This document shows positions 1,850 through 42,510 of a stretch of 50,215 nt of DNA, piece by piece; position 1 is the first letter of the stretch, and each line of letters begins with the position of its first letter. This DNA comes from a virus. Its lineage: Duplodnaviria; Caudoviricetes. The notes below the pieces were generated by a model. The model made no database searches, was not told where the DNA came from, and saw only the letters and a list, made by a program, of their open reading frames with translations. The DNA is taken from IMG/VR virus record IMGVR_UViG_3300017734_000011, positions 1-50,215 of that record. One strand, written 5' to 3'. A program made the position numbers and the translations under genes.

Positions 1850-4292
1850 AGAACCTCAAGTAATTCCTTTTGCAGAAGGTATGCCTTCAGACGACTTTCA
1901 AATAGAAGACATTGGAAATGATGAGGTTTTGGTAGGCGATCCATCTTTAGATATTTTGGATGAGGAAGACACATCCTTTGACCAAAATCTCGCAGAAACA
2001 ATTGATGCAAAAGAATTAAATGCAGTAGCAAGCCAATTAATTACGAGTTACGAAGCAGACAAAGAAGCAAGGTCTCAATGGGAAGATAGATACAAGCAAG
2101 GCTTAGAGACACTAGATGTACATGGTGGTCAAGAAGAAGAGGAAGACCAAAGAGCTACAAGAGGATTAAGCAACGTAGTTCATCCTATGATAGCAGAAGC
2201 AGCTACACAATTTAATGCAAGAGCAATAGCAGAATTATACCCAAGTGGCGGGCCAGTTAAGACAATAATAGTTGGTGACCCAAGCGAAGAGATGGAAGAA
2301 CAAGCTCGTAGAGTTAAAGACTTTATGAACTATCAGATTACTCAAGACATGCCAGAGTATTTCCCTGACTTAGACCAAATGTTATTTCAGTTACCATTAA
2401 TTGGACATACATTTAAGAAAGTTTGGTGGGATGCTAATTTAGACAGACAATGCTCACAATTTGTAAAAGCAGAAGACTTTGTAGTTTCTCCAGAGAGTAA
2501 AGACCTTTACACATCAAGCAGATATACACACGTTATTCGTATGCCTAAGAATGACTTTAACAAATATGTTAAGGCTGGGTTCTATTTACCAAGTAAATAC
2601 AGTGGAGAAGATATAGACCCTAGTGGTGATGTAGGTAGTGAGATAGAGGGCGTTGATCCTTATGGAGATAGCGAAGACGAAGTAATGACGCTTCTAGAAA
2701 TACATGCGTATCAATCATTTGATGGCATAGATACTATGGAAGAAGATGATGAAGATAACATGGTCGCCCTTCCTTATGTAATTACAATTGATTACGATGC
2801 AGAAAAGATAGTAAGCGTAAGGCGTAATTGGAGAGAAGAAGACCCTAAGCAAAAGAGAAGAGATTGGTTTGTAAGTTACAAGTTCCTACCTGGGACTGGT
2901 TTCTATGGTTTTGGCTTGTATCACATGATAGGTGGGCTAGGCAAAGCAGCTACTGGATCACTAAGAGCGTTATTAGATTCAGCAGCTTTCGCTAACATGC
3001 AAGGTGGATTTAAGCTCAAAGGCAGAGTTACTGGTGGAGAAATGCAGATAAACCCTGGTGAGTTTGCAGACTTAGATGCCACTGTGGATGATGTAAACAA
3101 AGCTATTATGCCTCTACCTTTTAAAGAGCCTTCAAGCACCTTGTTCAATCTTATGAACGCTATCGCTGATGCTGGAAGAAGGTTTGCTAGTACTGCAGAC
3201 CTAAATGTTGGCGATGTTAACCCAAATGCTCCCGTTGGGTCTACAGTTGCACTGATTGAGCAAGGTAGTAAAGCCTTCAGTGCGATACATAAAAGATTAC
3301 ACTATTCGCAAGGGCAAGAGTTCAAGATGCTTGCCAAGCTAAATGCAGAATATTTGCCAGAGAGTTTTACTTTTGCATTAGGTGGTGTAAGTGAAACTAT
3401 ATTTTCTAGAGACTTTGACGATAGAATAGATGTTATTCCAGTCAGTGACCCTAACATTTTTAGTAGTGCACAAAGAATTGCACAAGCCCAAGCAGTGTTG
3501 CAAATGGCTACCACTAGCCCACAATTATTCGATCAGTATGAATCTAACAAAAGAATGTTAGAAGCAATTCGTATAAATAACATAGATGAAATCTTGAAGA
3601 AGCCAGACGATGCATCAAGGTTAGACCCAATAACTGAAAATACTGCCTTGATGTATGGTAAAGCCATAAGAGCCTTTCCAGACCAAGATCACGAAGCTCA
3701 CATTGCAGTACACTTACAGTTTCTGCAAGACCCATCTTTAGCTGGGAACCCAGGAGCGGCAGCTATGCAACCAATTATGATAGCCCATATAGCTGAACAC
3801 ATAGCCTTGTTATACAGACAAAAGATGCAAGCGAGTATTGGCGTATCCCTACCAACCTTGCCAGAGCTTCGTGACCCTAAGTTTAAGTTTGAAGATATTA
3901 ATCCAGATATGGATAGAATCATAAGCGAAAGAGCAGCAGAAGTTGTGGCTAAAGCACCTCAGATGGAAGCAATTGCACCATTGGCAAAAATGATGCAACA
4001 ACAGCAGCAACAACAAAATCCATTACAATATGCACAAGAGTTAGCGAAACTAGAAGCTGAAGCCCTCAAAGCTAGAACGCAAGTGCAGATACAAGCTGAC
4101 CAAGCAAAGGCACAACAGAAACTAGCTATTAATGAAGCAGAAGCGAAACAAGATTTGCAGATAGAGCAAGCCAAGCTACAAGCAGACTTACAAGCCAAAG
4201 TAGCCAAGTTGGAACTTGAACTGCAGATGGAGCGTGAAAAAAACCAAGCTGAAATACAAAAGGAGATTATCAATGATGCCTCAAGACAATAG
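1842..4292 (+). CDS. portal protein (P22-like, long C-terminal coiled coil)
   Basis: 816 aa directly after TerL; GHTFKKVWWD and FYGFGL motifs; Gln/Ala-rich C-terminal helix. Confidence 0.9.
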   Translation: MAREPQVIPFAEGMPSDDFQIEDIGNDEVLVGDPSLDILDEEDTSFDQNLAETIDAKELNAVASQLITSYEADKEARSQWEDRYKQGLETLDVHGGQEEEEDQRATRGLSNVVHPMIAEAATQFNARAIAELYPSGGPVKTIIVGDPSEEMEEQARRVKDFMNYQITQDMPEYFPDLDQMLFQLPLIGHTFKKVWWDANLDRQCSQFVKAEDFVVSPESKDLYTSSRYTHVIRMPKNDFNKYVKAGFYLPSKYSGEDIDPSGDVGSEIEGVDPYGDSEDEVMTLLEIHAYQSFDGIDTMEEDDEDNMVALPYVITIDYDAEKIVSVRRNWREEDPKQKRRDWFVSYKFLPGTGFYGFGLYHMIGGLGKAATGSLRALLDSAAFANMQGGFKLKGRVTGGEMQINPGEFADLDATVDDVNKAIMPLPFKEPSSTLFNLMNAIADAGRRFASTADLNVGDVNPNAPVGSTVALIEQGSKAFSAIHKRLHYSQGQEFKMLAKLNAEYLPESFTFALGGVSETIFSRDFDDRIDVIPVSDPNIFSSAQRIAQAQAVLQMATTSPQLFDQYESNKRMLEAIRINNIDEILKKPDDASRLDPITENTALMYGKAIRAFPDQDHEAHIAVHLQFLQDPSLAGNPGAAAMQPIMIAHIAEHIALLYRQKMQASIGVSLPTLPELRDPKFKFEDINPDMDRIISERAAEVVAKAPQMEAIAPLAKMMQQQQQQQNPLQYAQELAKLEAEALKARTQVQIQADQAKAQQKLAINEAEAKQDLQIEQAKLQADLQAKVAKLELELQMEREKNQAEIQKEIINDASRQ

Positions 4293-4683
4293 AATGATGA
4301 CAGGGGCGACTATGACCCCAAACGAAATGGCTAGAGAGAACATTCCACCAAATATGGATATGGGTCTTGAAAGTATGCCATTGGACATGGATGCCATAAA
4401 CGAAGTTCGTTTACTTATGGACTTGGGATTAAATCCACAAGATGCTATGGAAGCAGTAGTAAGAAAACGAGCAATGGGCACAGTGAGACCAGAAGAATTT
4501 GGTGGTCAGCAAATGCAAGCTCCTATGCCAAGACCTCAGACAATGGGTGGTCAGCAAATGCCACAACAATTAGGTGCATTACCTCAAATGCCACCTCAAG
4601 CACCACCACCAAGACCTGTTCAAAGAATGGATTCAGATAGAACCCAAGATATGGAAATGCAAAAATTCAATATGGGCACATAG
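4273..4683 (+). CDS. hypothetical Met/Pro/Gln-rich protein
   Basis: AGGAG at 4261 favours ATG 4273 over the ORF-track start; low complexity; contains QLGALP. Confidence 0.7.
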   Translation: MMPQDNRMMTGATMTPNEMARENIPPNMDMGLESMPLDMDAINEVRLLMDLGLNPQDAMEAVVRKRAMGTVRPEEFGGQQMQAPMPRPQTMGGQQMPQQLGALPQMPPQAPPPRPVQRMDSDRTQDMEMQKFNMGT

Positions 4684-4692
4684 GATATATAA

Positions 4693-5730
4693 ATGGCTAG
4701 AGGCGACCAATACGGGGGCTATGGGGCGTTAAGTGACGCTTTAGGCAAAACTGATATGAGCATTGCAGATAAAGGATTAGGTATTGCTACAGGCTTTGGC
4801 ATTGGTAAAGGTCTTACAGAAATAAGCAATCCTCTTGGCGTAGCTTATAGCATTGGTAAAAGCGTTATGGGAATGACGCCTCAGCAACAAGCAGCTCAAG
4901 TCATGGGTAAAGAGTTTGGCTTTCAAGATGTTGTCAATACATTAAATCCATTTGGCACAACCAATGTAGATAAGCTTGCAACACAATTAGATGTAGATAA
5001 AAGTGGTAATTTAAGTCCAAGCGAAATATCACAAGGTATTGGTTATGGATATGGAAACGTACATGATGTTGTGTCAAGTATATCACCATTTGGTCCTGGA
5101 ACTAATGTAACTAACCCACAAACTTACACTTATAGCAAAAGCCAAGCACAAAGCATAGGTTCTGGAATTGGTAGTGGTGTTGGAGCAACTGGTGATCGTG
5201 GTGGAGCAAAAGGTGTAGGATATAGTGGAAGTAAGGGTGGATTTCTTGGATTTGGTAAGGCAGAAGGGGTTGATTCTAGTCAAAGCCAACAAACAGGAGC
5301 TCAAACTTCAATTACAGATACAACATCGCCTGGTAAAGACTTGTCAAATACATTTAGTGATGACGCAGCAACTCCCTCTGATTCATCAACTTACATATGT
5401 ACTGCACTATACGAAATGGGTGATATGAAAAAATATATCTACAAATATGATCAGATATATGGAAAACGTGTAGACCCATTGGTGTATAAAGGCTATTGTG
5501 TATGGGGAAAATATGTAGCTACAAAAATGAGAAACAAAGGAATAGTCTACAAAATCGCTAAGCCTTTAGCGTTAGCTTGGGCAAAACAAATGGCTTATGA
5601 CTTATCTAAGGGAAGATATGGCAAGAAGAGCAAGGTAGTTAAGGTTATAAGTAAAGTAGGCGAAGGCGTATGTTACGCTTTGGGATTTGTATCTAATATC
5701 AAGCAACTTATAGGAGAAAAACATGGCTGA
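4693..5730 (+). CDS. Gly/Ser-rich putative virion protein with C-terminal ICxxL...GYxxW domain
   Basis: 345 aa ORF with SD; the C-terminal ~100 aa align by eye with the C-terminus of 34795..36264. Confidence 0.75.
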   Translation: MARGDQYGGYGALSDALGKTDMSIADKGLGIATGFGIGKGLTEISNPLGVAYSIGKSVMGMTPQQQAAQVMGKEFGFQDVVNTLNPFGTTNVDKLATQLDVDKSGNLSPSEISQGIGYGYGNVHDVVSSISPFGPGTNVTNPQTYTYSKSQAQSIGSGIGSGVGATGDRGGAKGVGYSGSKGGFLGFGKAEGVDSSQSQQTGAQTSITDTTSPGKDLSNTFSDDAATPSDSSTYICTALYEMGDMKKYIYKYDQIYGKRVDPLVYKGYCVWGKYVATKMRNKGIVYKIAKPLALAWAKQMAYDLSKGRYGKKSKVVKVISKVGEGVCYALGFVSNIKQLIGEKHG

Positions 5731-6007
5731 TATCAACATAGAAAACATGGAAGAGAACGCTGAACTTTTCATGGAAAAAATGGGCTTCCCTCATAATGCA
5801 CCAGGTTTAGAACTATCTGACGATCAGTTAGTTAACTTTCTATTGTTATGTTACCAAGGTATGATGCTTCCAGACGAAGATGAGGAAGAGGATTACGAAG
5901 AGATGGATGGAGACGTTAAGGTCAAAGTCATGAAAGTAGATAGTGGCGATATGAGAGGCGTCATGGATGAGATACTTGGTCATGGCTCACCAAAGATAGG
6001 AATGTAG
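5723..6007 (+). CDS. hypothetical acidic protein
   Basis: AGGAG SD, overlaps previous stop, 94 aa. Confidence 0.75.
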   Translation: MADINIENMEENAELFMEKMGFPHNAPGLELSDDQLVNFLLLCYQGMMLPDEDEEEDYEEMDGDVKVKVMKVDSGDMRGVMDEILGHGSPKIGM

Positions 6008-6009
6008 AT

Positions 6010-6144
6010 ATGCCAGGAAAAGTATATTCACCAAAACAAAAAAAGATTGCTAACATGGCAAAGCCAAAGAACAAGCTTACTGGTGCAGATTTTAAAAAAC
6101 TATCTATGATAAAGAAAAAGAAGTCTAAAACAAAGAAGGCATAA
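6010..6144 (+). CDS. small Lys-rich protein (44 aa, not in ORF track)
   Basis: Hand translation MPGKVYSPKQKKIANMAKPKNKLTGADFKKLSMIKKKKSKTKKA; fills the gap between neighbours exactly. Confidence 0.75.
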   Translation: MPGKVYSPKQKKIANMAKPKNKLTGADFKKLSMIKKKKSKTKKA

Positions 6145-7401
6145 ATGGCTAAAGGTAAGTTTCTATTAGAATTTCTGACTAAGAACTTTAAGCCTTTATT
6201 CAGTGAGAATGAACTTGGTGCTTTAGGTAATGTAGCCACTACAGAGCAAATCAAGAAAGAATTTGGAGCATTGCCTAAGTTTGAGATAACTGGCGATGAC
6301 ATACTTGGAGCTTTTGGAAATAGAACAAGAGCTATAGATATGTATAAAGATAACGCTCTTCCATTTCAAAGAGGTTACACTAAACTTGTTAGAGACCCAC
6401 TAAAAGATTTTAGTATGAGAGGGCAAGTTGGAGCTTTGCAACAAAACCCTACACTTGCTACAGATGCATCTGTTTTACAAGGCAAAACAATAATACCCAT
6501 AGTTGGAGATAGAACAAGCAGAGATGTAATAATAACAGGCATTGGAGATTTAGACTTTGACAAGCCAGTTAGAACATTTGGTGGTGTTCAATTTATGGAT
6601 GATCCAAATCAAGGTTGGGCATCTATGATGGAGGCTATGAAGTCTTTTAACAAAAAAGTTGAGACTGTGGAAGAGATGGGTGGTAAGCCTGTTGGTATGA
6701 CAACAACTATGGGAGAAAGAGGTGGAGACTTCTCTTTAGACACTGCAAATGTAATTATAGAATCATTAAAGGTTAAGAAAAATACTAAGAAAAACCTAAA
6801 TGAAATGACAAAAATTATTAAAAACCAACAATATAGAAAGGGTGAAAAAACATCTCAGCCTTTTGAAAAAGTACCTAATCTTAATAATGTTGAAGAATTT
6901 GCAAACTATTTCAGAACTTTACCTGGATCTGCAAGAGCAGAGTTGGTAAAGCTATTCGATAAAGGAGAAATGCAAAATTTAGGAGCACCAAATATAGGGC
7001 AAATAAGAATAGCAACTTCTAACCCAGGTCTACTAGATGCAGACTTTCTTGGTATGGGAGCAAGATTTACTGATTTAAAATCAGGTGTAGTGCCAAGTAA
7101 ACATCCAACATATGATTCACAAATCATGAAAGCTTCAGATGCAGAGGTGTATACGTTTGGTACAAATATTCCAAAAACAATTATGCTAAGAGAGCCTATG
7201 GCTAAAGTTAGATCAGAGGGCAAGGGGCTAGGTCAATTCAAATCTATGCCTGCAGATTACAGAAAGTTAGCCATGAATACCCCAGTCCAAGTAGCAGATC
7301 AACAGTTAATAGATGAGGCGTCTAAATTTCTAGAAATACAAAGAACACTAGGCGATGAAGAAGCATATAAGTACGCACAAAGTTTAATACCAGCAACATA
7401 G
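6145..7401 (+). CDS. hypothetical protein, putative virion cargo
   Basis: 418 aa; three GAL motifs in the first ~100 aa followed by a globular domain (GDRT, GGVQFM, WASM, HPTY). Confidence 0.8.
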   Translation: MAKGKFLLEFLTKNFKPLFSENELGALGNVATTEQIKKEFGALPKFEITGDDILGAFGNRTRAIDMYKDNALPFQRGYTKLVRDPLKDFSMRGQVGALQQNPTLATDASVLQGKTIIPIVGDRTSRDVIITGIGDLDFDKPVRTFGGVQFMDDPNQGWASMMEAMKSFNKKVETVEEMGGKPVGMTTTMGERGGDFSLDTANVIIESLKVKKNTKKNLNEMTKIIKNQQYRKGEKTSQPFEKVPNLNNVEEFANYFRTLPGSARAELVKLFDKGEMQNLGAPNIGQIRIATSNPGLLDADFLGMGARFTDLKSGVVPSKHPTYDSQIMKASDAEVYTFGTNIPKTIMLREPMAKVRSEGKGLGQFKSMPADYRKLAMNTPVQVADQQLIDEASKFLEIQRTLGDEEAYKYAQSLIPAT

Positions 7402-7409
7402 GAGATAAC

Positions 7410-7589
7410 ATGTCTAAGAAACCAGGATTATACGCTAACATACATGCGAAGAGAAAAAGAATAGCTGCAGGCAGCGGAGAGAAAATGAGAAAAAAGGGTG
7501 AAAAGGGTGCACCAGCTAAGGGTACGTTTGCTAAGATAGCGAAACAAGAAAAGAAAAAGAAAAGCAAGAAAAAAACAAGGAAAGTATAA
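7410..7589 (+). CDS. small Lys-rich protein (59 aa, not in ORF track)
   Basis: AGGAG SD; MSKKPGLYANIHAKRKRIAAGSGEKMRKKG..., a type I recall from marine phages. Confidence 0.8.
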   Translation: MSKKPGLYANIHAKRKRIAAGSGEKMRKKGEKGAPAKGTFAKIAKQEKKKKSKKKTRKV

Positions 7590-7768
7590 TGGCTAAAGGC
7601 GTTAATCATTACTTCAAAGATGGCACTAAATATACTGGGGCAACACACAAGGATGCCAAAGGTAAAGTTATGTCAGGTGCTAGACATACTAAAAACAGTA
7701 AGTATTTAGTACATATGAAGGATTTATCTGCGACTGCAAAAAAGAAAGCAAAGAAAGCTAATGGCTAA
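7589..7768 (+). CDS. small basic His-containing protein (59 aa, not in ORF track)
   Basis: TAATG coupling; MAKGVNHYFKDGTKYTGATHKDAKGKVMSGARHTKNSKYLVH... Confidence 0.8.
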   Translation: MAKGVNHYFKDGTKYTGATHKDAKGKVMSGARHTKNSKYLVHMKDLSATAKKKAKKANG

Positions 7769-8018
7769 GTATAAAGGTAAAAGTGTATCTCTAAATAAGC
7801 CTAGAAGAATAGCAAAGGGCGAAACATCCTATGGCAAGAAGAAGTCAGTTGTTTATGTAATGGATGGAGATAAAGTAAAGCGTGTGACATTTGGTGACCC
7901 AAACATGCGAATTAAGAAAAACCAAAAAGGAAACAGAAAGAGCTTTAGGTCTAGACATAACTGTGACAATCCAGGACCAAAGACTAAGGCAAGATATTGG
8001 TCATGTAAGGCGTGGTAA
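7761..8018 (+). CDS. small basic protein (FGDPNM...FRSRHNCD...RYWSCKAW type)
   Basis: 85 aa, Lys-rich, motif set familiar from phage hypothetical proteins. Confidence 0.8.
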   Translation: MAKYKGKSVSLNKPRRIAKGETSYGKKKSVVYVMDGDKVKRVTFGDPNMRIKKNQKGNRKSFRSRHNCDNPGPKTKARYWSCKAW

Positions 8019-8019
8019 G

Positions 8020-8787
8020 ATGAACCCATTTGGTGTATTCGCAAAATTAATAAACAAAGGCGTAAGAAGCAAAGATGCAGTGCCATATCAAGGTGCTGGT
8101 GAAGTTTTAGATGATATGCCTACTGAAGAGCAGTTAAGAGAGTTAGGCAACTTACCAACTGAGCAAGAGTTAATAGAAAGAGGCTTTGACCCTTCGACTT
8201 TCTATCATGGAAGCCCAGTAAAAAATATTGATGAGTTTGTGCCACAAGCTTCTGACAGAACTGTTTTTGGAGGATTTAGAGACAAAAGAGTTGGTGAACC
8301 AGTAACATTCTTTAGTCAAGACCCAAGATATGTTGAAGGCTTTGCACTTAAGGGAGGTATGCCTGTAAATAAAGGTGGTCTTACCTACTATATGCCTCAT
8401 GAAAGTTCCAGAATATATCCAGTCAAAATTAAAATGAACAATGTATATGATTATAAAAACCCTCAACACCAAGAAATGTTAGAGCAACAACTAGGAGAAA
8501 GCCTAGATATGGATGTAAAGATTGGTGATGCATTTGTGTTACAAGACCCCAAAATAAGTAAAGCTATAAAAGATTTGGGCTTTGAAGGCTTTCTTACTAA
8601 CGAAACAGCTAGGTTTGGCAATAAAACAGTTGGTTTATTCTATCCAGAGAAGGGCAATGTAAGAAGTGTATTTGCACAATTTGACCCAGAGAAATCAGAC
8701 AAAGGTAATATATATGCTTCTATAATACCACCAATGGCAACTGCAGTAGGTGTTGGAGCACTAGCTGGACTAGATGAGAGCACATAA
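8020..8787 (+). CDS. ADP-ribosyltransferase-like protein (ART-PolyVal type)
   Basis: FYHGS...FFSQDP...IYPVKIK...GFEGF...NVRSVFAQFDP pattern matches the ART domain of polyvalent proteins. True start is probably ATG 8020, right after the previous stop. Confidence 0.7.
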   Translation: MNPFGVFAKLINKGVRSKDAVPYQGAGEVLDDMPTEEQLRELGNLPTEQELIERGFDPSTFYHGSPVKNIDEFVPQASDRTVFGGFRDKRVGEPVTFFSQDPRYVEGFALKGGMPVNKGGLTYYMPHESSRIYPVKIKMNNVYDYKNPQHQEMLEQQLGESLDMDVKIGDAFVLQDPKISKAIKDLGFEGFLTNETARFGNKTVGLFYPEKGNVRSVFAQFDPEKSDKGNIYASIIPPMATAVGVGALAGLDEST

Positions 8788-9359
8788 TGGTAAAACCTAT
8801 AGTAAAAGGAATTACTTACGTTTTAGACGCCCTTGGAAACAAGATAGGAGCATTGCCAAGCACTAGCAAAAGCTTAAGTGAGTATTCTGATATTATTGAC
8901 CAAAGTGTACAGTTAGACACCCCAGACGCTTATAAAAACTTATTTCATACAGATAAAGAGTTTGCCAAAGGTTATGGTGGGGAGTTAAAGTCTGGAGCTT
9001 TGAAATTTGGTAGTGAAGATATGCCTCCATCATTAACAGACAAAGAGCTTACTGATGCTCAAAAAGAGATACAAGAACTTACACAAGATTATCTAAAAGA
9101 CTTGCCAGAAGAAATAACAGTTTATAGATATGGCGATTTAGATGCAAATAGTGGTGTTAGTTCGTTTACATTAAACCCTAATTACAATGTTGATCTTAGC
9201 TTGCCTTGGCAAAAGCGATTGCAAAGTCCACTGCAAGCATTTAAAGTAAAGAAAAAAGATATACTAGCAAGCCCAGACATAAACGCCTTCTTTGGTGGTG
9301 GCAGAACATTTGATGAGCAAGAAGTTATTATTAGCAATGACAAAGTAAAGGTTGAGTAA
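8787..9359 (+). CDS. putative R-S-E class ADP-ribosyltransferase
   Basis: Ordered motifs ITVYRYG, VSSFTLN and DEQEVII correspond to the R, S-x-(S/T) and ExE elements. Confidence 0.6.
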   Translation: MVKPIVKGITYVLDALGNKIGALPSTSKSLSEYSDIIDQSVQLDTPDAYKNLFHTDKEFAKGYGGELKSGALKFGSEDMPPSLTDKELTDAQKEIQELTQDYLKDLPEEITVYRYGDLDANSGVSSFTLNPNYNVDLSLPWQKRLQSPLQAFKVKKKDILASPDINAFFGGGRTFDEQEVIISNDKVKVE

Positions 9360-9553
9360 TGGCTAAGAGAACAAAAATAAAAAAGGTAGCTAACGCTGAA
9401 ATAAGAGCTGCTAAGAAATTTTTAAAATCAAAAGGTCTCGAATCTGATGAGGTAAGCCCAAAGAAGTTTGCTACTGCAGCTAAAAAGCTAGATAAAGGCT
9501 TTCAAGAAACCTTAGAGATATTGGCTAGAACACTATCAGCAGGACAAGTGTAA
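9359..9553 (+). CDS. small basic protein
   Basis: 64 aa, TAATG-coupled on both sides. Confidence 0.75.
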   Translation: MAKRTKIKKVANAEIRAAKKFLKSKGLESDEVSPKKFATAAKKLDKGFQETLEILARTLSAGQV

Positions 9554-10014
9554 TGGATATCAAAGGCTTTTTAAGTAATTTAAAAATGAAAGCACCACAA
9601 GTTGATATTAGTGGTGGTCGCTCAGTAAATCAATTTGTAGTTAATTTGCCAACTAGCACACCTAACATTACAGAAATAAAAAACAGAGCTAGTGGTAGTG
9701 TGGATTTAAATTTTGAAGCACCCTCAATGGTAGAAGGTCAGCCAACTGTATTTGGCATGGGTGGTAGTGGTAATTTTATGGAAGGGCAAGTTAAGTTTCC
9801 AGAAGAACTACAAGTTTATGGTGCTCCTGAAAGTCAACAGTTTGGGCAAGGATTAACAGTGGATCAGATAAGGGCGTATTTAGGTATACCAATTACAGAA
9901 AACACAAGTTTAAATATACAAGGTCAAATAAACCCATACTACTTTGATCCTGTGGATGGAACACCACTTGGAAAAGAGAAGAATATTGGGGCAAACATAG
10001 AGTATAGGTTCTAA
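9553..10014 (+). CDS. hypothetical beta-rich protein ending in a beta-barrel-like signal
   Basis: Alternating Gly/hydrophobic strands; C-terminus IGANIEYRF. Confidence 0.7.
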   Translation: MDIKGFLSNLKMKAPQVDISGGRSVNQFVVNLPTSTPNITEIKNRASGSVDLNFEAPSMVEGQPTVFGMGGSGNFMEGQVKFPEELQVYGAPESQQFGQGLTVDQIRAYLGIPITENTSLNIQGQINPYYFDPVDGTPLGKEKNIGANIEYRF

Positions 10015-12690
10015 ATGGCTGAGACTGAGCTAGATAGATTTTTTAGAGAAAACAGAATTAAGGAAGCACAAAGCGTAGAGCCAAGTGTTTTTGAAAATCC
10101 TCAGTATGCTTCTATGATATACAATTCTAATGTGCCTCTAAATCAATTAGAAAAGAATATACAACAATCTCAAGGGGCTACATTAGAGCCATACAATCCT
10201 ACCATGAGAGAAAACATAAAGTATGGCATTAGAGACCTTTTAACATACTTAGGCACACCAGAGGGCACAGCAAGCAATGTGGCTAGAGGTTTTATGGGAA
10301 ACCCTAATGCTGAAGCATTTAGTAAGTCAGTAGGTTTGTTAGACGTTGCACCTATAGTAAACATACCATTCTATTTACAAGAAGCTGGAAGAGGATTTCA
10401 GAGGGCACAAAAAGGAACTGATTATATAGCTCCAGCTATAGAAGGTGGTGCTGCTATATTAGAAGGTGCACTAGTAACAAAACCTTTAGCAAAAAAACTT
10501 AAGGGCTTCTCACAATCACTATCGAAAAAGCTTAGAGGCGATACAGATGTATCAACACCAATCGTAGGAACATTACCTCTTAAATCTGAACCTAAAATGT
10601 TAGCAAGTACAAGAAGAATGCCACCAGGTGGTGGTAATGTTATGACAAACCCAAGAAAGTTAGATGAGTTAGGTTTTTTCTATAAATCAGAAGAAGTTGC
10701 TAACAAAATGAAACAAAACAAAGGTAGTGGAGCTGACTTTAAAAAATATTTTCAGAATCAAGGCGTAACTGAAGCCGAGTTAGCTGATACTGGTCTTGAT
10801 GATCTGTTTAAGGTTACAAGCAGACCTATTACAAAAAAGGACATATTACTTAAAATTAGAATGAATAAACTGCAATTATATGAGGATGTTTACCAAGACA
10901 ATCCAGTTGCAGAAGGTTCAAGCCTTATATTTGAGAATATAGCTGACAAAATATCAGAAACACCTTCATATAATAAATTTAGCAATTATGAAATAGATCA
11001 GCTAAATAGAGGTCTAAAAGTATCAGACGAAACACGAGCAGAAACAGAGCTAGTAAATCCTTCAAAAGTTTTGGAAGACACAAAGACAGGATACAGAATA
11101 GTTTATGATGATGAGAGCAACAGCTTTCTTAGTTTTGATAAAGATGCTGATATCTTCGATATTTCCCAATCAGAACAATATAAAATGTTGAGTGATTATG
11201 GCGATGATATGGATGCATTTAGATTTAACGAAATAGCTACTCCAGGCAACATAAACGAATCCATAGTTCAGACAGAAAGTTTTGCTATACAAAATGGCGA
11301 TTATATTGCTAAAGATGCTAGATTTTCAGAGAGCACACAACAAGGTGGCTCTAATTACAGAGAGTTTGTAATAGGTAAGCAATCAAATAACCCAACTTCA
11401 GCAAGATTAGGTGAGTATAGCGATATCGATGATTACCAAAATCCAACTCACTTTCCAAACTATAATCCAATTGTTCACCTTCGTACAAAGGATAGAACAT
11501 TAGAAGATGGAAGCAAAACTCTATATGTAGAAGAATTTCAATCAGATAGAGGTCAGGCAGGAAGACAAAGAGGCTTCGCACCAGGCACTAAATCATATGA
11601 GAAAAATAAACAAAAGTTCGATGAAGTAGATGACGAGTTATTTGGATTAAGAAATTTAAAAATCAAATTAACTGCACCAGAACAAGAGCTTTTGTATTCA
11701 CTGAAGAACCCAGGCAGACCACCAATTAGAGTGCCATTACGAGAAGATGTTTCTGGATTAATGGCTGAAAAATACAATCAAGGTGCAAAAATGCCTGAAA
11801 ACGTATTTGATTACGAAAATAGCAGAATGCCTGATGAATATAAGACTATGACTATGGCTGACTACATAGATTTTGTGAACAGTAATAATTTAGAAGATTC
11901 TATAACAACTTCTTTAGAGCCACTTAAAGCTTTGAGAAAAGCTGGATTTGTAGTTGAGCCTTTTGAAAAAATGCCAAAAGAACTTCAAAGGGATATAGTT
12001 GGCACATTCGTAAGATATACATCACCTAGTAAATATGATTTAAGAGGTAACAATCAATTTTCAGATGCAAAGACATTCGAAGCCTATGCAGACGATTTGA
12101 TAGCAAGAAGATATAGGCTTGACACTAAATTATCTGGCAATATTCCTGGTGGAGATGTGGTTGAAACCACTGAGGGATGGACTAAATTTGGTATAAAAAG
12201 ACTATTGCAGAGAGCAGTTCTAGAAGGTCATGACAGTGTTTCATTCTCACCTGGACAAGTCCAAGTTGATAGATGGGGTAATGAAGGACTACTTGAGCAC
12301 TATGAAGATAAAATACCATCTATGGCGAAGAAGGTTGCAGGAAAAGAAAATGTCAGCAAACAAATTGTAGAAATAAGACCAAAAAATTTACATACAGTCG
12401 TAATGCTAAGGGGTAGTTCACCATTAGATAGAGTGTATCAAGTTAAAGAGGTTGGCACTGATCTACCAGTTGCATCATTTAGAACTTTAGAGCAAGCTCA
12501 AAATAACGCTGATTTTAGAAACGCTACTCAAAAACAATCATCATGGACAATAAAAATTACGCCAGAATTAAAAGAAAAAGTTCTTAAGGGATTATCTCTA
12601 TTTACTATGGGTGCAGGAACTGCAATAGGATTAGAGGAGCAGTTAGGGGCACTAAGCAATATGCCTAGTACCCAAGCTAATGCTACCTAG
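10015..12690 (+). CDS. large polyvalent-type putative virion/ejection protein
   Basis: 891 aa; NYRE...THF...VHLRTKDR...LYVEEFQSD motif set; C-terminal hydrophobic tail with QLGALSNM. Confidence 0.7.
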   Translation: MAETELDRFFRENRIKEAQSVEPSVFENPQYASMIYNSNVPLNQLEKNIQQSQGATLEPYNPTMRENIKYGIRDLLTYLGTPEGTASNVARGFMGNPNAEAFSKSVGLLDVAPIVNIPFYLQEAGRGFQRAQKGTDYIAPAIEGGAAILEGALVTKPLAKKLKGFSQSLSKKLRGDTDVSTPIVGTLPLKSEPKMLASTRRMPPGGGNVMTNPRKLDELGFFYKSEEVANKMKQNKGSGADFKKYFQNQGVTEAELADTGLDDLFKVTSRPITKKDILLKIRMNKLQLYEDVYQDNPVAEGSSLIFENIADKISETPSYNKFSNYEIDQLNRGLKVSDETRAETELVNPSKVLEDTKTGYRIVYDDESNSFLSFDKDADIFDISQSEQYKMLSDYGDDMDAFRFNEIATPGNINESIVQTESFAIQNGDYIAKDARFSESTQQGGSNYREFVIGKQSNNPTSARLGEYSDIDDYQNPTHFPNYNPIVHLRTKDRTLEDGSKTLYVEEFQSDRGQAGRQRGFAPGTKSYEKNKQKFDEVDDELFGLRNLKIKLTAPEQELLYSLKNPGRPPIRVPLREDVSGLMAEKYNQGAKMPENVFDYENSRMPDEYKTMTMADYIDFVNSNNLEDSITTSLEPLKALRKAGFVVEPFEKMPKELQRDIVGTFVRYTSPSKYDLRGNNQFSDAKTFEAYADDLIARRYRLDTKLSGNIPGGDVVETTEGWTKFGIKRLLQRAVLEGHDSVSFSPGQVQVDRWGNEGLLEHYEDKIPSMAKKVAGKENVSKQIVEIRPKNLHTVVMLRGSSPLDRVYQVKEVGTDLPVASFRTLEQAQNNADFRNATQKQSSWTIKITPELKEKVLKGLSLFTMGAGTAIGLEEQLGALSNMPSTQANAT

Positions 12691-15815: not shown

Positions 15816-16751
15816 ATGGAAGAAAAAAACAGTGCAATCGAAGAGATTGAAAAAGAAATAGAAGAGACTAGGCGTAAGGCTCAGTCAGATGACTTCGAAA
15901 TAGAGATAGCTGAGGAAAAAGAAAATAAAGCTGAAGCTAAATCTGAAGAGAACTCTGAAGAGGTCGAGGAAGTCTCTGAAACTAAAGAAGAGAAAGACAG
16001 AAAGTATAGTGAAGCAGTACAAGCTAGGCTAAACAAAATGTCTGCTCAAAGGCGTCAAGCTGAAACAGAAGCTAAGAAGTATCAAGAAGAAGTCGCTCAA
16101 TTACAAGCTAGGTTAGCTAGATTGGAAAACACAAATGTTGAGCAACAAACTGCTAGAGCACAAAGTGAGTTTGAAAATCGTTACCAACTTACTAAACAAG
16201 CTCTACATAAGGCAGTTGAAGAAGGCGATACTGATGCTCAAGTTAACTTCTCAGAACAATTAGCTGACATGAGAGCAGCTATGAGAGTTAGCGAAATGCA
16301 AAAACAACTAAGGCAACAACAACAAACACAATCGCCTACAGTTGGCAGAGCACAACAAGCTGCAGTTAATCCAGCACCCCCAAAAGCAATGAATTGGTGG
16401 CAACAAAACCAATGGTTTAATGCACAAGGATATGAGAGAGAAACAGCAGCGGCTAGAGCCATAGATGTACAACTCGACTTGGAAGGGTTCGACAAGAACT
16501 CAGACGACTATTATAGCCAATTAAATAGTCGTTTACAAAAGGTGTTTCCAGAGTTAGTATCAAGTAACGACCAAAGTACGAAGAGTAAGAGTAGAAAAAT
16601 AGTAACACCAACTACGGGTGGCTCATCGTATAGAGGTAACAGGGTTCGAATGACACAGGATCAGTTACGAATGGCTAGAGAGCTTGGAATAAATGATGAG
16701 GCAGGTTTGAAAAAATACGCTTCAGAAATTCAGAAAAGTCAAAGGAGTTAA
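15816..16751 (+). CDS. putative capsid scaffolding protein
   Basis: Acidic N-terminus, long coiled coil, position upstream of capsid genes. Confidence 0.7.
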   Translation: MEEKNSAIEEIEKEIEETRRKAQSDDFEIEIAEEKENKAEAKSEENSEEVEEVSETKEEKDRKYSEAVQARLNKMSAQRRQAETEAKKYQEEVAQLQARLARLENTNVEQQTARAQSEFENRYQLTKQALHKAVEEGDTDAQVNFSEQLADMRAAMRVSEMQKQLRQQQQTQSPTVGRAQQAAVNPAPPKAMNWWQQNQWFNAQGYERETAAARAIDVQLDLEGFDKNSDDYYSQLNSRLQKVFPELVSSNDQSTKSKSRKIVTPTTGGSSYRGNRVRMTQDQLRMARELGINDEAGLKKYASEIQKSQRS

Positions 16752-25436: not shown

Positions 25437-25816
25437 TGGCAACATATGTTTGGACAATAAACACTTTACATACTAAAGATATTACAAAAAATGGAACTAC
25501 ATATAATGATGCAATACTTAGGGTAGAAGCAACTTTAACTGGAACAAGTGAAACTATTAACAGTATAACTTCTGAAGCAGGTTTTGATTTAGATATAAAT
25601 GTAGATAATATAGACAATAGCTTTACTGTATATGGTTCTGTTACAAAAGCAAATGTAATAAGCTGGATTGAAGGTAGGGTTGGGTCTACCCAATTAGCTG
25701 AGATTAAAACTGAAATTGAAAACAACATAGACTTTAAAGAAAAAATTGATGGATCAATTGCTAAAGGTTCAACTGATTCAGATGGTAATTTTACTGCATC
25801 TTTTCCCTGGTCATAA
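25436..25816 (+). CDS. tail-fibre-associated small protein
   Basis: MATYVWTI...VISWIE...FPW pattern. Confidence 0.65.
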   Translation: MATYVWTINTLHTKDITKNGTTYNDAILRVEATLTGTSETINSITSEAGFDLDINVDNIDNSFTVYGSVTKANVISWIEGRVGSTQLAEIKTEIENNIDFKEKIDGSIAKGSTDSDGNFTASFPWS

Positions 25817-25819
25817 CAT

Positions 25820-25848
25820 TTGACATACATTTTTGTTTCTTATAGATT
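25820..25848 (+). promoter_or_regulatory. putative sigma70 promoter for the oxygenase cassette
   Basis: TTGACA-17 nt-TAGATT in the intergenic gap. Confidence 0.55.
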
Positions 25849-25869
25849 TATCTATAGGGTAGCAAGAAT

Positions 25870-27643: not shown

Positions 27644-27649
27644 AGTAAA

Positions 27650-36264: not shown

Positions 36265-36266
36265 TT

Positions 36267-36638
36267 ATGGCTGAAGATATGAGAATGATGGGAGAAAGAA
36301 TGCCTATGGAAGCTCAAATGGGTGTTAGAGAAAGAATGCCTGCAAACCCACAACTAGACATGGGTATGCCATCAGAGGCAAATGAAGTGATAATGCGACC
36401 AAGTGAGGGTATCAAAAACGCATTATTCATGAGACTGAGTAATATGACTCCAGAAGAGTTGCAAATGTTAGACAGAGCAATTACGCCAGAGGTTGCTAGT
36501 GTTTTGGTTAAGTTGTTGCCAGAAATGCAACAGTTAATCGAGATGGTTGAGCAAAGTGGTGCAGGCGATGCTATGGAAGAAGATCAAATGGGATTAGGCG
36601 ATATGCCTAAAGACATGGGTGCGTTGGGTAACGTGTAA
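36267..36638 (+). CDS. hypothetical Met-rich acidic protein
   Basis: GGAG SD; ends MGALGNV. Confidence 0.75.
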   Translation: MAEDMRMMGERMPMEAQMGVRERMPANPQLDMGMPSEANEVIMRPSEGIKNALFMRLSNMTPEELQMLDRAITPEVASVLVKLLPEMQQLIEMVEQSGAGDAMEEDQMGLGDMPKDMGALGNV

Positions 36639-37078
36639 TGCAAGTAGTAAGGGCTGGTGCTAATGAAATATCAGCTTTGTACGTTATGCTTAAAGAAATG
36701 CATAGTAACACAGAAACAGATGTAGCACCTATCGATGAATATAAATTAGTAAGTAAAATCAATGAAGTAGTCCATAAAGGTTTGGTTTTGGTAAGCGTCA
36801 AAGATAATATGATTACTGGATCTATAGGAGGAATGACTACAAGTGATTGGTGGTCGAATCAGCCATTCCTTTCAGATATGTGGTTTTATGTCAATCCTTC
36901 ACAAAGAAAATCTGATGCTGCTATATCATTGATAAAGGCATTTATCAAAGTGGGAAAAGATGCTAAACTAAAAGTAAGATTAGGTCATATTTATTCTGGC
37001 GACTTAGATCGAAAGGATAAATTCTATGAAAGATTAGGGCTAGTTAAAGCTGGCTCTACATATGTGGAGAAAGAATAA
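36638..37078 (+). CDS. GNAT-family acetyltransferase
   Basis: WFYVNPSQRKS (motif A) and KFYERLG. Confidence 0.8.
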   Translation: MQVVRAGANEISALYVMLKEMHSNTETDVAPIDEYKLVSKINEVVHKGLVLVSVKDNMITGSIGGMTTSDWWSNQPFLSDMWFYVNPSQRKSDAAISLIKAFIKVGKDAKLKVRLGHIYSGDLDRKDKFYERLGLVKAGSTYVEKE

Positions 37079-38553
37079 TGGGTGGATTATGCCAAACACA
37101 AGTTCAGCCACTTCCAGATTATAGTGAAGTCGTAACAGATACGCAGTTACCTGGTTGGGTTTCTGAAGGTGGCAAAAGGCTTTTTGAAGAAGCATCATCA
37201 CTAGCAAGAGGTGAATATCCAGCATATGAAGATGCAAGGATTGCATCATATACAGACCCAGTCACTGGAGAAACATCTAAGTTATCACCAGACGAGTTAG
37301 CGGCCCAGCAACTTCTTAGAGATGGTGCAAGTGGTTATCAAAGTTACATCGATAGTGCTTCAGAGATGGCTAAGGGCTTGGGTCAAGGTTTTGAAGGTAT
37401 GTCCACAAGTGAGCTAATTGGTGATCCATATAGTGGTGCATCAAGAGACGAATTGCTTGGGGGTGCATTGCCAACGTATCAAGGTGCATCAAGAGCAGAT
37501 TTAATAGGTAGCTCTCTTCCTGCATACCAAGGTGCAAGTCGTGAAGATTTATTAGGTAATTACACTGGAGCTACAAGACAAGAATTGGTAGGCGAAAGTA
37601 TGTCGCCATTTACTATGGAAACTGCACAACCATTTTTAGATATATATCAAGGTGCACAAGACGCTTCAGTATCAGAGTTAGAAAGACAAACTGCAAGAGC
37701 TAATGCTAGGAACAGAGCATCAGCAGCTAGGTCTGGAGCTTTTGGTGGATCAAGATTAGGGATACAAGAAGCCCTAACACAAAGCGAAGGGGCAAGAGGG
37801 GCGGCAGATTTAAGAGCACAGGCAGCAGCACAAGGTCTGCAGTTTGCGGCTGGAAGATATGACCAAGATAGAGCACAATCAGAGCGTGATAGGCAAGCAA
37901 GGTTTGGAGCAGAAAACTTACTTCGTGGTCAGTTTATGCAAGATAGAGAAGGCAGATTTACTGCAGAAAACTTAATGAGAAGCCAATACGAACAAGATAG
38001 GGCACAAGCAGAAAGAGATAGATCAGCTAGATTTGGTGCTGAAGATGTGTTGAGAGGTCGTTTTGAGCAAGACAGAGCACAAGCTGAGAGAGATAGAAGT
38101 GCACGTTTTGGTGCAGAAGACGTTATGCGTTCTAGATATGACGCAGAAAGACAAGCTAGGTTTGGGGCACAAGACGCAGCAAGATCAGCATTTGAAACAG
38201 AAGAGGCTAGTAGGCTAAGGGCTACAGAAGCCTTGCAAGGTTTTGCACCACTTACACAAGCTCTAAGTGATCAGGCAGCATCAGGTTTATTTACCTCTGG
38301 GCAAGCACAAAGAGAGCTAGACCAAAGAGCGTTAGATATGGCTTATGCTGACTATGTAGAGCAAAGACAATATCCATATGATCAAATTAACTTTGCATTA
38401 GGGGTGCTTCAAGGTGTTCCATATGACACAAGAAATATAAGTCTTACACAAGGTCAACAGTTTATTCAGTCACCTAGTATATATGGTCAAACTATAGGTG
38501 GATTAGGTTCGCTGGGAAGTGCATACTTCTTGGCACAGAATAGAGGTCAATAA
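37078..38553 (+). CDS. putative DNA ejection/pilot protein with internal repeats
   Basis: GAFGGSR motif, Ala/Gln-rich helices, C-terminal GGLGSLG. Confidence 0.7.
   Translation: MGGLCQTQVQPLPDYSEVVTDTQLPGWVSEGGKRLFEEASSLARGEYPAYEDARIASYTDPVTGETSKLSPDELAAQQLLRDGASGYQSYIDSASEMAKGLGQGFEGMSTSELIGDPYSGASRDELLGGALPTYQGASRADLIGSSLPAYQGASREDLLGNYTGATRQELVGESMSPFTMETAQPFLDIYQGAQDASVSELERQTARANARNRASAARSGAFGGSRLGIQEALTQSEGARGAADLRAQAAAQGLQFAAGRYDQDRAQSERDRQARFGAENLLRGQFMQDREGRFTAENLMRSQYEQDRAQAERDRSARFGAEDVLRGRFEQDRAQAERDRSARFGAEDVMRSRYDAERQARFGAQDAARSAFETEEASRLRATEALQGFAPLTQALSDQAASGLFTSGQAQRELDQRALDMAYADYVEQRQYPYDQINFALGVLQGVPYDTRNISLTQGQQFIQSPSIYGQTIGGLGSLGSAYFLAQNRGQ
37864..38200 (+). repeat. coding tandem repeats (QDRAQAERDRSARFGAE)
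   Basis: Five RF(G/T)A(E/Q) units with 18- or 25-aa period. Confidence 0.8.
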
Positions 38554-38555
38554 GC

Positions 38556-40169
38556 ATGAGTCAAGTTACGCTGACACAAAAAGACATTGATGAAATTGCT
38601 CCAGAAAACATAAAGTACTTTCAGCAACAGTTAGGTTTAGATAAATTAGTTCCAGGCACATATCAATATGGAAGTGGTGCAACTGCAAACAACCAAACTA
38701 CAAACACTCAAAGTTTTGGTGCGTCAGGCACAACACCACAAGCCCTCACTGGTGGTGCTTTAAACAATATTACTGATTATATACCTCAAGCTCAAACTTT
38801 AATGAGCACATTGTATGGCAAAACACCAGAGCAACAAGAAAGAGAAGACAGAATAAACACTGGACTTATGTTTCTTAACTTCTTTACTAAGATGGGTGCA
38901 GAGTCATCAAAGCCAGGTGCGACTGCATTTGGAGCAGCTAATATTGCTGGTGCAGATACTGCTAAAATGTATATAGATAGAATAAACAAAGAAAGAGAAA
39001 GAAAGCTAAAAGAGAGGCAAGGCGTAGTAAGTCTAGCCACACAACTTTATTCTAAAGACAAACCAACTGGTGCACCTAAAAATTACACTGTAGTAGATGC
39101 TAATATAGTCAATAGAACTTTTGGAACTAACCTTAAAGAAGGTGATCCAATTGCCTTATCAACAAAGCAATTTGCCAAAGTACCTACAGGATCACTAGTG
39201 GGATATCAAGCACCAAAAACTTCTACAGTTAAGCAAATGGGTGCTGGCGATGCTATTAATTATATGACTGAAATTCAAGCTACTCGCTATCTACTTAACA
39301 AAGGATTGGAACGAGACAATCCAAATTTCGAAAATATTAGAAATAGACTTATTACACAAGATGAAAACCTTTTAGGAACGCCTGTAATAATATCTGGTAA
39401 ACCTGCAGAAATAAATTTCACATCCAAAGATGGTTCAATAATTGATGCTGTTATTTCTCAAATTAAAGGTTCAGAAAAAACAGACTATGCACAATACAAG
39501 ACAAAAAAATTACAAGAAATTGCAAAAACAGATGCAGAGTATATCGAAAAAGTAACAAGATTTTTACCAAATCTACAAAATGCTATGGATACTCTACTAG
39601 ACCCCAATGTTAAAACTGGTGGTATAGAAGGTGCTTTATTACCAGCAAAACAATTCTTGAAGAGCATGTTTGGCTTCAAGGATGAAGATTTAAAAGATCA
39701 AGAGTTCTTAAGGTCTATATCTTTCCAATTAGCACCGCAAATGAGACCCAAAGGATCAGGCTCTACCTCAGATATGGAATTTAAAGCATATCAACAAGCC
39801 ATATTAGAGCTAGGCAACACCAAATTCGCTAACTATATCAACTTGTATTCTTTGAAAAAGATGACTGAAAATGCAATACAACTAAATCAGTTAGAGGCGG
39901 AGCTTTTAGTTGATCCTAAAAACTACTCAAGAAAATATATCAACGAAAAAATAAAAGAGTTCGACAAAGGAATATTTGAAAAATTTAATGCATATGTAGA
40001 AGAAGAAGGTAAGCTTGTGCCCAAATATGATAATGATGAAGTGAAAGAGCAGGCGTTTCAAGAGTATTGGGCAAGCCTACCAAATGGTGCAGTTTTTCGT
40101 AACGCTGACGAAAAAGGACAAAAAATTGTTGAAGATTCGGGACCTTTTTTAATCAAAGGCTTGAGATAA
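38556..40169 (+). CDS. putative internal virion/ejection protein
   Basis: 537 aa helical; GSGSTSDME motif; position. Confidence 0.65.
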   Translation: MSQVTLTQKDIDEIAPENIKYFQQQLGLDKLVPGTYQYGSGATANNQTTNTQSFGASGTTPQALTGGALNNITDYIPQAQTLMSTLYGKTPEQQEREDRINTGLMFLNFFTKMGAESSKPGATAFGAANIAGADTAKMYIDRINKERERKLKERQGVVSLATQLYSKDKPTGAPKNYTVVDANIVNRTFGTNLKEGDPIALSTKQFAKVPTGSLVGYQAPKTSTVKQMGAGDAINYMTEIQATRYLLNKGLERDNPNFENIRNRLITQDENLLGTPVIISGKPAEINFTSKDGSIIDAVISQIKGSEKTDYAQYKTKKLQEIAKTDAEYIEKVTRFLPNLQNAMDTLLDPNVKTGGIEGALLPAKQFLKSMFGFKDEDLKDQEFLRSISFQLAPQMRPKGSGSTSDMEFKAYQQAILELGNTKFANYINLYSLKKMTENAIQLNQLEAELLVDPKNYSRKYINEKIKEFDKGIFEKFNAYVEEEGKLVPKYDNDEVKEQAFQEYWASLPNGAVFRNADEKGQKIVEDSGPFLIKGLR

Positions 40170-42505: not shown

Positions 42506-42510
42506 ATGAC

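Follow-up and report, generated by a model that had tools for sequence, protein, structure and literature searches.

How podophages choose the proteins that are enclosed in the head and injected is, to our knowledge, largely unknown outside T4, and in P22 no more has been established than that the scaffold is required. The stretch of DNA analyzed here (the window) is the entire 50,215-base IMG/VR record IMGVR_UViG_3300017734_000011, from a marine podophage of the CRP-901-type lineage, and it raises this question through a short peptide, a hydrophobic residue followed by Gly-Ala-Leu (GAL), which recurs in proteins encoded just after the portal gene and again in an ejection-type module. A preliminary description of the sequence had proposed that GAL is a packaging or processing address that lets the phage load interchangeable effectors into the head. 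Our analysis supports a narrower model, which we hold to be slightly better than an even bet: GAL would be a docking tag that marks the head-carried proteins of CRP-901-type podophages and is read, without cutting, by a common partner in the procapsid.

All 12 instances named in the preliminary description were recovered from the window. With genes and proteins called by the first position of the gene, they are QQLGALPQMP in 4273, GGYGALSDAL in 4693, ELGALGNVA, EFGALPKFE and QVGALQQNP in 6145, GVGALAGLDEST-stop in 8020, KIGALPSTS in 8787, EQLGALSNMP in 10015, DMGALGNV-stop in 36267, GGALPTYQ in 37078, GGALNNIT in 38556 and GMGALATGI in 40169. Five more had been missed (SGALKF in 8787, EGALVT in 10015, GGALGG in 34795, EGALLP in 38556 and EGALTP in 40169), and the stray copies already listed for the large terminase subunit, 22112 and 27650 are present, one apiece. 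Per-protein composition predicts 6.64 GALs for the window; 20 are seen, placing GAL first by over-representation among the 5396 tripeptides that occur. Seventeen of the 20 fall in the post-portal block (10 versus 1.06 expected) and the ejection module (7 versus 1.68), and the other 51 proteins hold 3 versus 3.89 expected. The portal, the scaffold-like protein 15816 and the major capsid protein carry none, in agreement with the preliminary description. As it also stated, codons differ among copies, and they do so for all three residues, so that the peptide is conserved, and selected, at the protein level; a DNA-level boundary repeat was rejected as an explanation on the same grounds. A weight matrix built from 90 instances in relatives whose portals are less than 80% identical finds eight sites of at least 12 bits in the window (three in 6145 and one each in 4273, 4693, 8020, 10015 and 36267), compared to 0.75 expected from a shuffled proteome and to 1 of 20,199 control positions. 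The excess of GAL has an uncorrected P of 2e-5 but of about 0.1 after correction, so the window alone is suggestive, and it is the relatives that make the case decisive.

A search of IMG/VR with the portal yielded a first set of 80 related loci, with a best-segment identity of at least 68%; open reading frames (ORFs) were called there simply by taking the longest. Clustering of 361 plus-strand ORFs from the post-portal block at 50% identity left 140 representatives (33,493 residues), and 121 representatives of all other ORFs of at least 80 residues in these loci formed the control. Among the conditions on which the preliminary description had let its proposal stand or fall were enrichment over a composition-matched background and retention in homologous phages, and both are seen in the relatives. 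The block representatives contain 109 GALs versus 15.3 expected, which makes GAL their top tripeptide by far, and the control representatives contain 8 versus 6.2. Shuffling whole block proteins gave 15.6 +/- 3.8 copies; in 300 local shuffles within 20 residues the count was 17.9 +/- 4.1 and never exceeded 32. The permuted tripeptides GLA, LAG and AGL occur 9, 14 and 13 times in the block (versus 15.3), showing no enrichment, and a Gly/Ala-rich fiber family holds 18 GALs versus 20.5 expected. Every locus with at least 800 block residues (30 of 30) has at least one GAL. The copies are kept in the same two modules, which hold 17 of the 23 GALs of Roseobacter phage CRP-901 and 10 of the 17 of CRP-902, even though the GAL-bearing block proteins of these two phages have no BLAST match to block proteins of the window.

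That otherwise unrelated proteins carry the peptide, as had been claimed, is evident when the block representatives are grouped by BLAST linkage at E 1e-3: GAL occurs in 31 of the resulting 73 families, and in 26 of the 42 that have a member of at least 100 residues. When profiles of the short post-portal proteins and of the 36267 family are compared, only the seven tag residues align. Most carriers are encoded by genes of single-domain size. Among the 102 of 140 block representatives with at least 100 residues, a Pfam scan found the ADP-ribosyltransferase (ART) family ART-PolyVal in six at E <=1e-4 (three above the Pfam cut-off of 31.2 bits), along with one SLT transglycosylase, one 2-oxoglutarate (2OG)-Fe(II) oxygenase and one DUF5824. 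Between portal and GroES, gene content and length are hypervariable among phages whose portals are 68-97% identical, which fits the proposed interchangeability of effectors. Three small conserved islands recur in this block, none of them tagged: homologues of 5723 (acidic, 94 amino acids [aa]), of 7761 (basic, Cys-containing, 85 aa, 73-100% identical) and of 9359 (basic, 64 aa). They may act as adaptor, chaperone or DNA-binding internal protein.

The motif extends beyond its core. Its logo reads hydrophobic-G-A-L-[G/P/S/A]-[N/D]-[L/I/V]-[P/G], with F, L, V or M at -1, G, P, S or A at +3, N (5-fold) or D at +4, L, I or V at +5 (67 of the 109 copies) and P (3.9-fold) or G at +6. With the flanks fixed the core is strict, the first position being G in 37 of 42 sequences, the middle A in 37 of 48 and the third L in 37 of 50. 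Chain ends are favored: 19 of the 109 copies are no more than 15 residues from the N terminus (7.9 expected) and 18 of 94 are equally close to the C terminus, where an acidic tail often follows, as in GALNTIPEEDGT-stop. The remaining copies are internal, and tandem copies also occur.

Placement shifts even among orthologues. In the 6145 family the core aligns from protein to protein, and the tag is found N-terminally, C-terminally (GALNxIPEEDGT-stop) or, in one protein, at both ends; the three tags of the window protein (13.9, 12.5 and 13.3 bits) all lie within its N-terminal 100 residues. For 4693, N-terminal forms such as MAKKFGALQSI are found in relatives. The tag of 10015 stands 14 residues before the C terminus, and a second GAL at residue 151 scores low. 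In 4273 the GAL corresponds to residue 120 of an ORF starting at 4216, and the short form of this positional family has only five invariant columns, a P, an F and G-A-L itself. The short post-portal proteins (L041:8468-8692 and 17 homologues) have a second conserved peptide in their N-terminal region, PINPAAFGGLP, which reads FGALP in L059. These short proteins of 70-100 residues may consist of two tags joined by a Pro/Gln-rich linker, plus one amphipathic helix.

The ART-like protein 8020 is the one carrier that was folded by structure prediction. It matches ART-PolyVal at E 1.6e-4 and 22.9 bits, below the Pfam cut-off of 31.2, which homologues exceed, and a conserved tail, GV-GAL-xG[LIV]-[DE]x[ST]-stop, ends 7 of 10 aligned members of its family. 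An AlphaFold2 model has a folded core (residues 55-220) and tails (1-34 and 220-255) with a predicted local distance difference test (pLDDT) score below 50, and the tag sits in the C-terminal one. Foldseek places ART/RES toxins at the top (MbcT, E 2.6e-3) and also matches a cyanophage A4 pre-ejectosome chain (E 1.2e-2), both weakly. As for the gene itself, an ORF from 7891 overlaps the conserved 7761 gene (7761-8018) by 128 bases, and the likely start is 8020. From there the protein begins MNPFGVFAKLI, similar to a degenerate version of the tag that homologues have at the N terminus, MGIFGALDNL or MAGFGALDNL.

Searching with the 32379 protein gave a second set of 80 loci, in which the ejection module is syntenic. 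After clustering at 50% identity, the ejection representatives hold 38 GALs versus 15.9 expected, and all other representatives 10 versus 20.5. Avoidance of stray tags outside the module is a possible reason for this deficit; the first control set (8 versus 6.2) shows no depletion. Four of the five ejection-module families share GAL, with carriage among unique homologues of 78% of 55 for 34795, 94% of 35 for 36267, 92% of 37 for 37078 and 79% of 29 for 38556, compared to 0-6% for 34283, 34464, 42511, the GNAT protein 36638 and the core proteins of head and tail. The exceptions outside these families are single fixed GALs within folded domains of 22112, 32379, 20459 and 22536; in 22112 and 32379 they seem to be no more than ordinary conserved positions.

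The 34795 family has 69 GALs versus 19.1 expected in 55 unique sequences, including, in relatives, N-terminal MATAGALTGL and internal NIGALANVG. In the 36267 family the tail MGALG[GN]M closes 23 of 24 aligned sequences, the window's own counted. The 37078 family (41 GALs versus 18.1 in 37 sequences) has a site near the C terminus that reads LGVLQGVP in the window (38398-38421) and FALGALQGVPY in relatives; the window protein also has a run of degenerate RFGAE[DN] repeats with (E)QDRAQAERDR spacers. In the N-terminal region where 38556 has its copy, relatives have GGAL-x-x-[LI], and the 38556 family holds 28 GALs versus 9.3 expected. Positions and scores of the window copies are given in the table.

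Table. Portal, tag-bearing proteins and candidate tag reader in the window.
Feature	Coordinates	Strand	Remarks
Portal, 816 aa	1842..4292	+	PHROG 1216 portal, E 2.7e-35
Small Met/Pro/Gln-rich protein	4273..4683	+	Tag LGALPQMP at 4570-4593, 14.7 bits
345-aa Gly/Ser-rich protein, no known family	4693..5730	+	N-terminal YGALSDAL at 4720-4743, 12.6 bits
418-aa conserved block family protein	6145..7401	+	Tags at 6214-6237, 6262-6285 and 6427-6450
ADP-ribosyltransferase-like protein	8020..8787	+	C-terminal VGALAGLD at 8752-8775, then EST-stop, 16.3 bits
190-aa protein	8787..9359	+	IGALPSTS at 8844-8867 and SGALKFGS, both <11 bits; uncertain member
891-aa protein, no known family	10015..12690	+	LGALSNMP at 12643-12666, 13.6 bits
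Scaffold-like protein, candidate tag reader	15816..16751	+	Assigned from alignment; no GAL
489-aa protein with Gly-zipper segment	34795..36264	+	Window copy only GGALGGRV, inside that segment
123-aa protein	36267..36638	+	MGALGNV-stop at 36615-36635, 17.9 bits, best site in the window
491-aa DNA ejection protein	37078..38553	+	PHROG 4287; GGALPTYQ, weak
537-aa protein	38556..40169	+	Tag-like GGALNNIT at 38751-38774, 11.0 bits

The left end of the window carries the small and large terminase subunits, the portal, which borders the tagged block upstream, and the block of mostly unknown genes (4273-12690), after which come a short cluster on the reverse strand, a cell-wall hydrolase gene and GroES. 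Next come the head genes, in the order scaffold-like 15816, conserved 16754 and 17258 without assigned role, and a Mu gpT-like capsid protein (17827), and then an SU10-type adaptor, tail and fiber genes, auxiliary metabolic genes and lysis genes. The right part holds a large structural protein (32379) and the ejection-type module (34795-43281). The window portal is 72% identical to those of CRP-901 and CRP-902 and 38-42% identical to those of HTVC023P-type pelagiphages. It lacks GAL and ends in a coiled-coil tail: residues ~715-810 form a Gln-rich stretch and then a long predicted coiled coil, reminiscent of the P22 portal barrel, and the HTVC023P portal ends in a similar tail. The auxiliary cluster at 25870-30776 encodes a ferrochelatase-like protein, a DUF6445 protein, two or three 2OG-Fe(II) oxygenases, a QueC-like fragment and a full Cys/Met-metabolism pyridoxal phosphate enzyme (E 1.4e-96).

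A profile of the 36267 family reached 230 library representatives at E <=1e-3, and tails were classed in the best 150 of the 230. GAL lies within the last 14 residues in 53 of these 150; in another 30 the helical core is kept but the chain ends in [SA]-x-G-L-[MVITS]-[GR], typically NPLxxxxVSRGLMG-stop; and 67, many of which look truncated, have neither tail. Further tails seen among those 67 are G[LI]A[GQ]QR[MFL]G and [KT][ST][RK]L[GN]x[VI]. These observations cover library proteins P0080-P0145, G001 25093-27439 and L174 4618-12286. Genomes of this sister lineage came from one viral contig and from the one of three metagenome loci that was long enough for use; a single-protein search for more found none. 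In the complete 60-kb sister genome, whose portal is unrelated to that of the window, S[RKQ]GL[MVIT] occurs four times versus 0.2 expected. Three ejection-module proteins that lie side by side hold all four copies, and the peptide is found nowhere else in 19,404 residues, the remaining 76 ORFs being free of it. On the second sister contig the strict pattern is found in three neighboring proteins, including the N terminus of a giant protein, and the 36267 homologue ends in a looser SRGLSGF. The sister lineage thus uses a different tag in concert, and a peptide that differs among lineages but is shared within a phage is what would be expected of a tag read by one common partner.

In the mechanism that we propose, the tag would mark the ejection proteins and the fast-changing accessory set encoded just after the portal gene. 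Displayed on a linker or on a flexible tail at either terminus, it would bind a single shared partner while the procapsid forms, and whatever protein bears it would be co-assembled; cutting would not be needed. The carriers would accordingly be virion-internal proteins that the tag causes to be loaded. The most likely partner is the scaffold-like protein; alternatively, the role could fall to the capsid protein through its inner face, to the portal or to a different internal protein. We favor the scaffold because of a precedent in P22, where ejection proteins enter procapsids via the scaffold and independently of the portal (PMC8402733). We also favor it because acidic residues often trail C-terminal tags and the C-terminal part of the scaffold-like protein is basic, from which we infer a possible charge match. 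Taking this and the sister lineage together, it is possible, though we would put it short of an even chance, that both use an encapsulin-like, protease-free loading code, with a lineage-specific address at either terminus and one procapsid receptor co-evolving with it; the addresses would be of GAL type here and of SRGLMG type in the sister lineage, perhaps with others besides.

In alignment the candidate reader is laid out like a scaffold: its N terminus is acidic, it has a coiled coil and a Trp-rich domain, and its C-terminal helices are basic. It has no Pfam family, a match only to a PHROG without known function, and no solved relative; profiles of 15816, 17258 and 16754 found nothing meaningful among solved structures. 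A complex prediction of 15816 with residues 1-60 of 6145, which include two tags, scored 0.05 against a mark of 0.32 and counts neither way. GAL is absent from the window portal, 15816, 16754, 17258 and capsid protein, and in the second locus set it is also absent from homologues of all of these and of the adaptor and others. A search for a head protease found no such family among the 67 window ORFs with Pfam and PHROGs, which a novel protease could escape, and the annotation of the complete CRP-901 and CRP-902 genomes has only a 155-aa "peptidase" in the lysis region. The 16754 protein has no conserved Ser/His set, and its AlphaFold2 model (mean pLDDT 59.6) has no Foldseek match better than E 0.88, so it is not recognizable as a protease or as anything else. 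In the ESM Atlas 16754 matched only unnamed viral clusters, and for 17258 the matches pointed weakly (0.84) toward cement proteins of phages. The capsid protein (300 residues) has no N-terminal extension. Mimicry of GroES was considered and rejected, as the mobile loop of the phage GroES reads SGIILPEK rather than the tag.

Several observations weigh against a docking tag or limit how far the data carry it. Some window copies score low, 38556 at 11.0 bits and 8787, 37078, 40169 and 34795 below 11, and the latter four may be accidental or degenerate. With clustering at 50% identity, copies in related proteins are partly non-independent, and the sister-lineage result rests on two genomes. Order-promoting residues are only modestly fewer in the flanks (0.218 versus a null of 0.239 +/- 0.009), so that a disordered context is shown directly for one protein only, the AlphaFold2 model of 8020. 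In a term search, the text of the CRP-901 paper contained neither mass spectrometry nor a mention of the motif, and a literature search, supplements aside, found no virion proteomics for CRP-901-type or HTVC023P-type phages and no description of this motif; the internal status of the carriers therefore rests on gene position and weak family matches. In addition, the more distantly related pelagiphage HTVC023P (L003), whose capsid protein is 59% identical to that of the window and whose scaffold-like protein is homologous, shows no enrichment of GAL (10 versus 6.4) and no match to the extended tag patterns. Either the system is limited to certain lineages, or the code has changed; on this evidence the GAL code is confined to the CRP-901-type lineage. 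HTVC023P is enriched in NLP (9 versus 2.0; gp81-gp83 and gp40), and its site orthologous to FALGALQGVPY reads GIMTNLP. The code may exist there in diverged form. Caulobacter phage RW (L167; portal 38.5% identical) has a mild excess, 16 GALs versus 7.9, with 9 of the 16 in four ejection-module proteins (gp63-gp66), including MMGALQGV at the 37078-family site. RW can be cultured and could serve as a tractable test system.

Other explanations can be judged on the same data. That GAL is chance, or a by-product of low-complexity sequence rich in Gly, Ala and Leu, could be argued from the window, with its corrected significance of about 0.1 and its low-scoring copies, but is refuted by the relatives, where the excess is seven-fold over composition and six-fold over local 20-residue shuffles, permuted tripeptides and the Gly/Ala-rich fiber family show nothing comparable, and the logo is specific at +4, +5 and +6. 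The processing half of the original proposal, under which GAL would be a cutting site of a head-maturation or other protease that trims the carriers inside the head, has precedent in T4 and in phiKZ-like/SPN3US phages; a small G-A core would suit a protease, and some copies lie in linkers or several to an N-terminal region, as the three of 6145 do. It finds no support here, because the window, which is the whole record, has no protease family in its 67 ORFs, the CRP-901 and CRP-902 annotations have no head protease, and 16754 lacks both a Ser/His set and a fold match. Capsid, portal and scaffold-like protein also lack the motif, unlike in protease-using phages, and many copies are 4-10 residues from the chain end or at the very C terminus, where a cut would remove almost nothing and so do nothing. 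We consider cutting improbable, the least probable of the explanations still standing.

Two further explanations strike us as unlikely, and about equally so, if a little less than cutting. The tag could act after assembly, as an exit or translocation signal through the channel of portal, tail and ejectosome, or in docking to a host protein or membrane. All confident carriers are in modules expected to be ejected, terminal placement would suit threading, and a concerted change of tag fits any common reader, a channel component included. We know of no precedent for a sequence-coded exit signal in phage ejection, however, a point on which no dedicated search was made, and a host target would leave the switch of tag on a kept helical core unexplained unless the hosts differ. 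The tag could instead be a mutual assembly element of an internal body, or pre-ejectosome, whose hub is an internal protein rather than scaffold or shell, with the helical core of the 36267 family or a small post-portal protein as candidates. Both small families combine a conserved helix with one or two tags, and the small carriers closely trail large genes, the start of 4273 overlapping the end of the portal gene and 36267 beginning 3 bases past the stop of 34795. Solved podophage pre-ejectosomes are interlocked stacks on the portal (PMC12002296). By itself this explanation does not account for how a large and changing set of enzymes would fit into an ordered stack, and it overlaps with a docking tag read in the procapsid, from which it differs only in the identity of the reader.

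One close analogy is that drawn in the preliminary description, to T4. The T4 capsid-targeting sequence (CTS) of IPI-III and Alt, unrelated proteins that are housed in the head and leave it together with the DNA, is N-terminal only, works via the scaffolding core and is removed by gp21 at L/I-x-E. What survives of the comparison is the notion of a short address: as with the CTS, a short peptide on unrelated proteins would make cargo interchangeable. The features of the T4 signal, N-terminal only and removed by protease, do not carry over, because the tag is N-terminal, C-terminal or internal, is sometimes repeated and shifts position among orthologues, its sequence is unrelated, no protease was found, and ejection proteins are tagged too. 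A head-protease code of the T4 and phiKZ/SPN3US type would be expected to mark the capsid protein, the scaffold, the portal or the protease itself, and GAL marks none of the first three in the window.

Encapsulins offer a second parallel. Their cargo carries terminal GSLxIGSLK-type peptides that bind the shell interior, and such peptides (GSLxIGSLK, LTVGSLRR and GGDLGIRK) are read by a protein of an HK97-type shell system without cutting (PMC10960027). These resemble the phage tag in having about 7-10 residues, a Gly, a small residue, a Leu and spaced hydrophobics, and in occurring on flexible tails of unrelated cargo (PMC10960027). A short peptide on a flexible terminal tail of unrelated putative cargo is likewise what is seen here, in 31 of 73 families, in the terminal bias and in one AlphaFold2 tail. 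The sequence type GSLxIGSLK/TVGSL is not what is seen, as with the flanks fixed the middle residue is Ser in 3 of 48 sequences and Ala in 37, and the spacing is G-S-L-x-I in encapsulins versus G-A-L-x-N-L here. Encapsulin peptides end in Lys or Arg, whereas C-terminal phage tags are often trailed by acidic residues, and encapsulin cargo genes adjoin the shell gene, whereas tag genes adjoin the portal gene and lie in the ejection module.

Among phages, P22 (gp7, gp16 and gp20) is likewise a podophage without a head protease, but lacks the variable cargo block of the window lineage; binding has been mapped only to large N-terminal parts of gp7 and gp20, and the sections of the source available to us name no shared peptide (PMC8402733). 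Polyvalent or MuF-type effectors, with ART-PolyVal and other domains, are encoded beside portal genes and thought to be delivered together with DNA (Iyer et al. 2017, PMC5512222). ART-PolyVal domains lie beside the portal here as well, in 6 of the 102 block representatives. The polyvalent effectors, however, are giant multidomain chains or fusions to MuF (SPP1 gp7 / Mu gpF), whereas here they are mostly separate tagged genes, and no Phage_Mu_F domain was found in the 67 window ORFs or the 102 block representatives.

If this abundant group of marine phages, relatives of CRP-901 and CRP-902, has a short and portable tag defined by its sequence, the question of how podophages choose their cargo would become directly testable. 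If true, it would amount to a simple, sequence-only rule that predicts injected effectors, including likely anti-defense enzymes of the ADP-ribosyltransferase-like kind, and foreign proteins could be loaded into phage capsids with the tag as a minimal handle. The resemblance to encapsulins would bear on how HK97-type shells acquired cargo loading. Under a loading code, a new effector gene would need only a tag of 7-8 residues to become virion cargo, which would explain why a hypervariable effector block with rapid gene turnover has grown up beside the portal gene.

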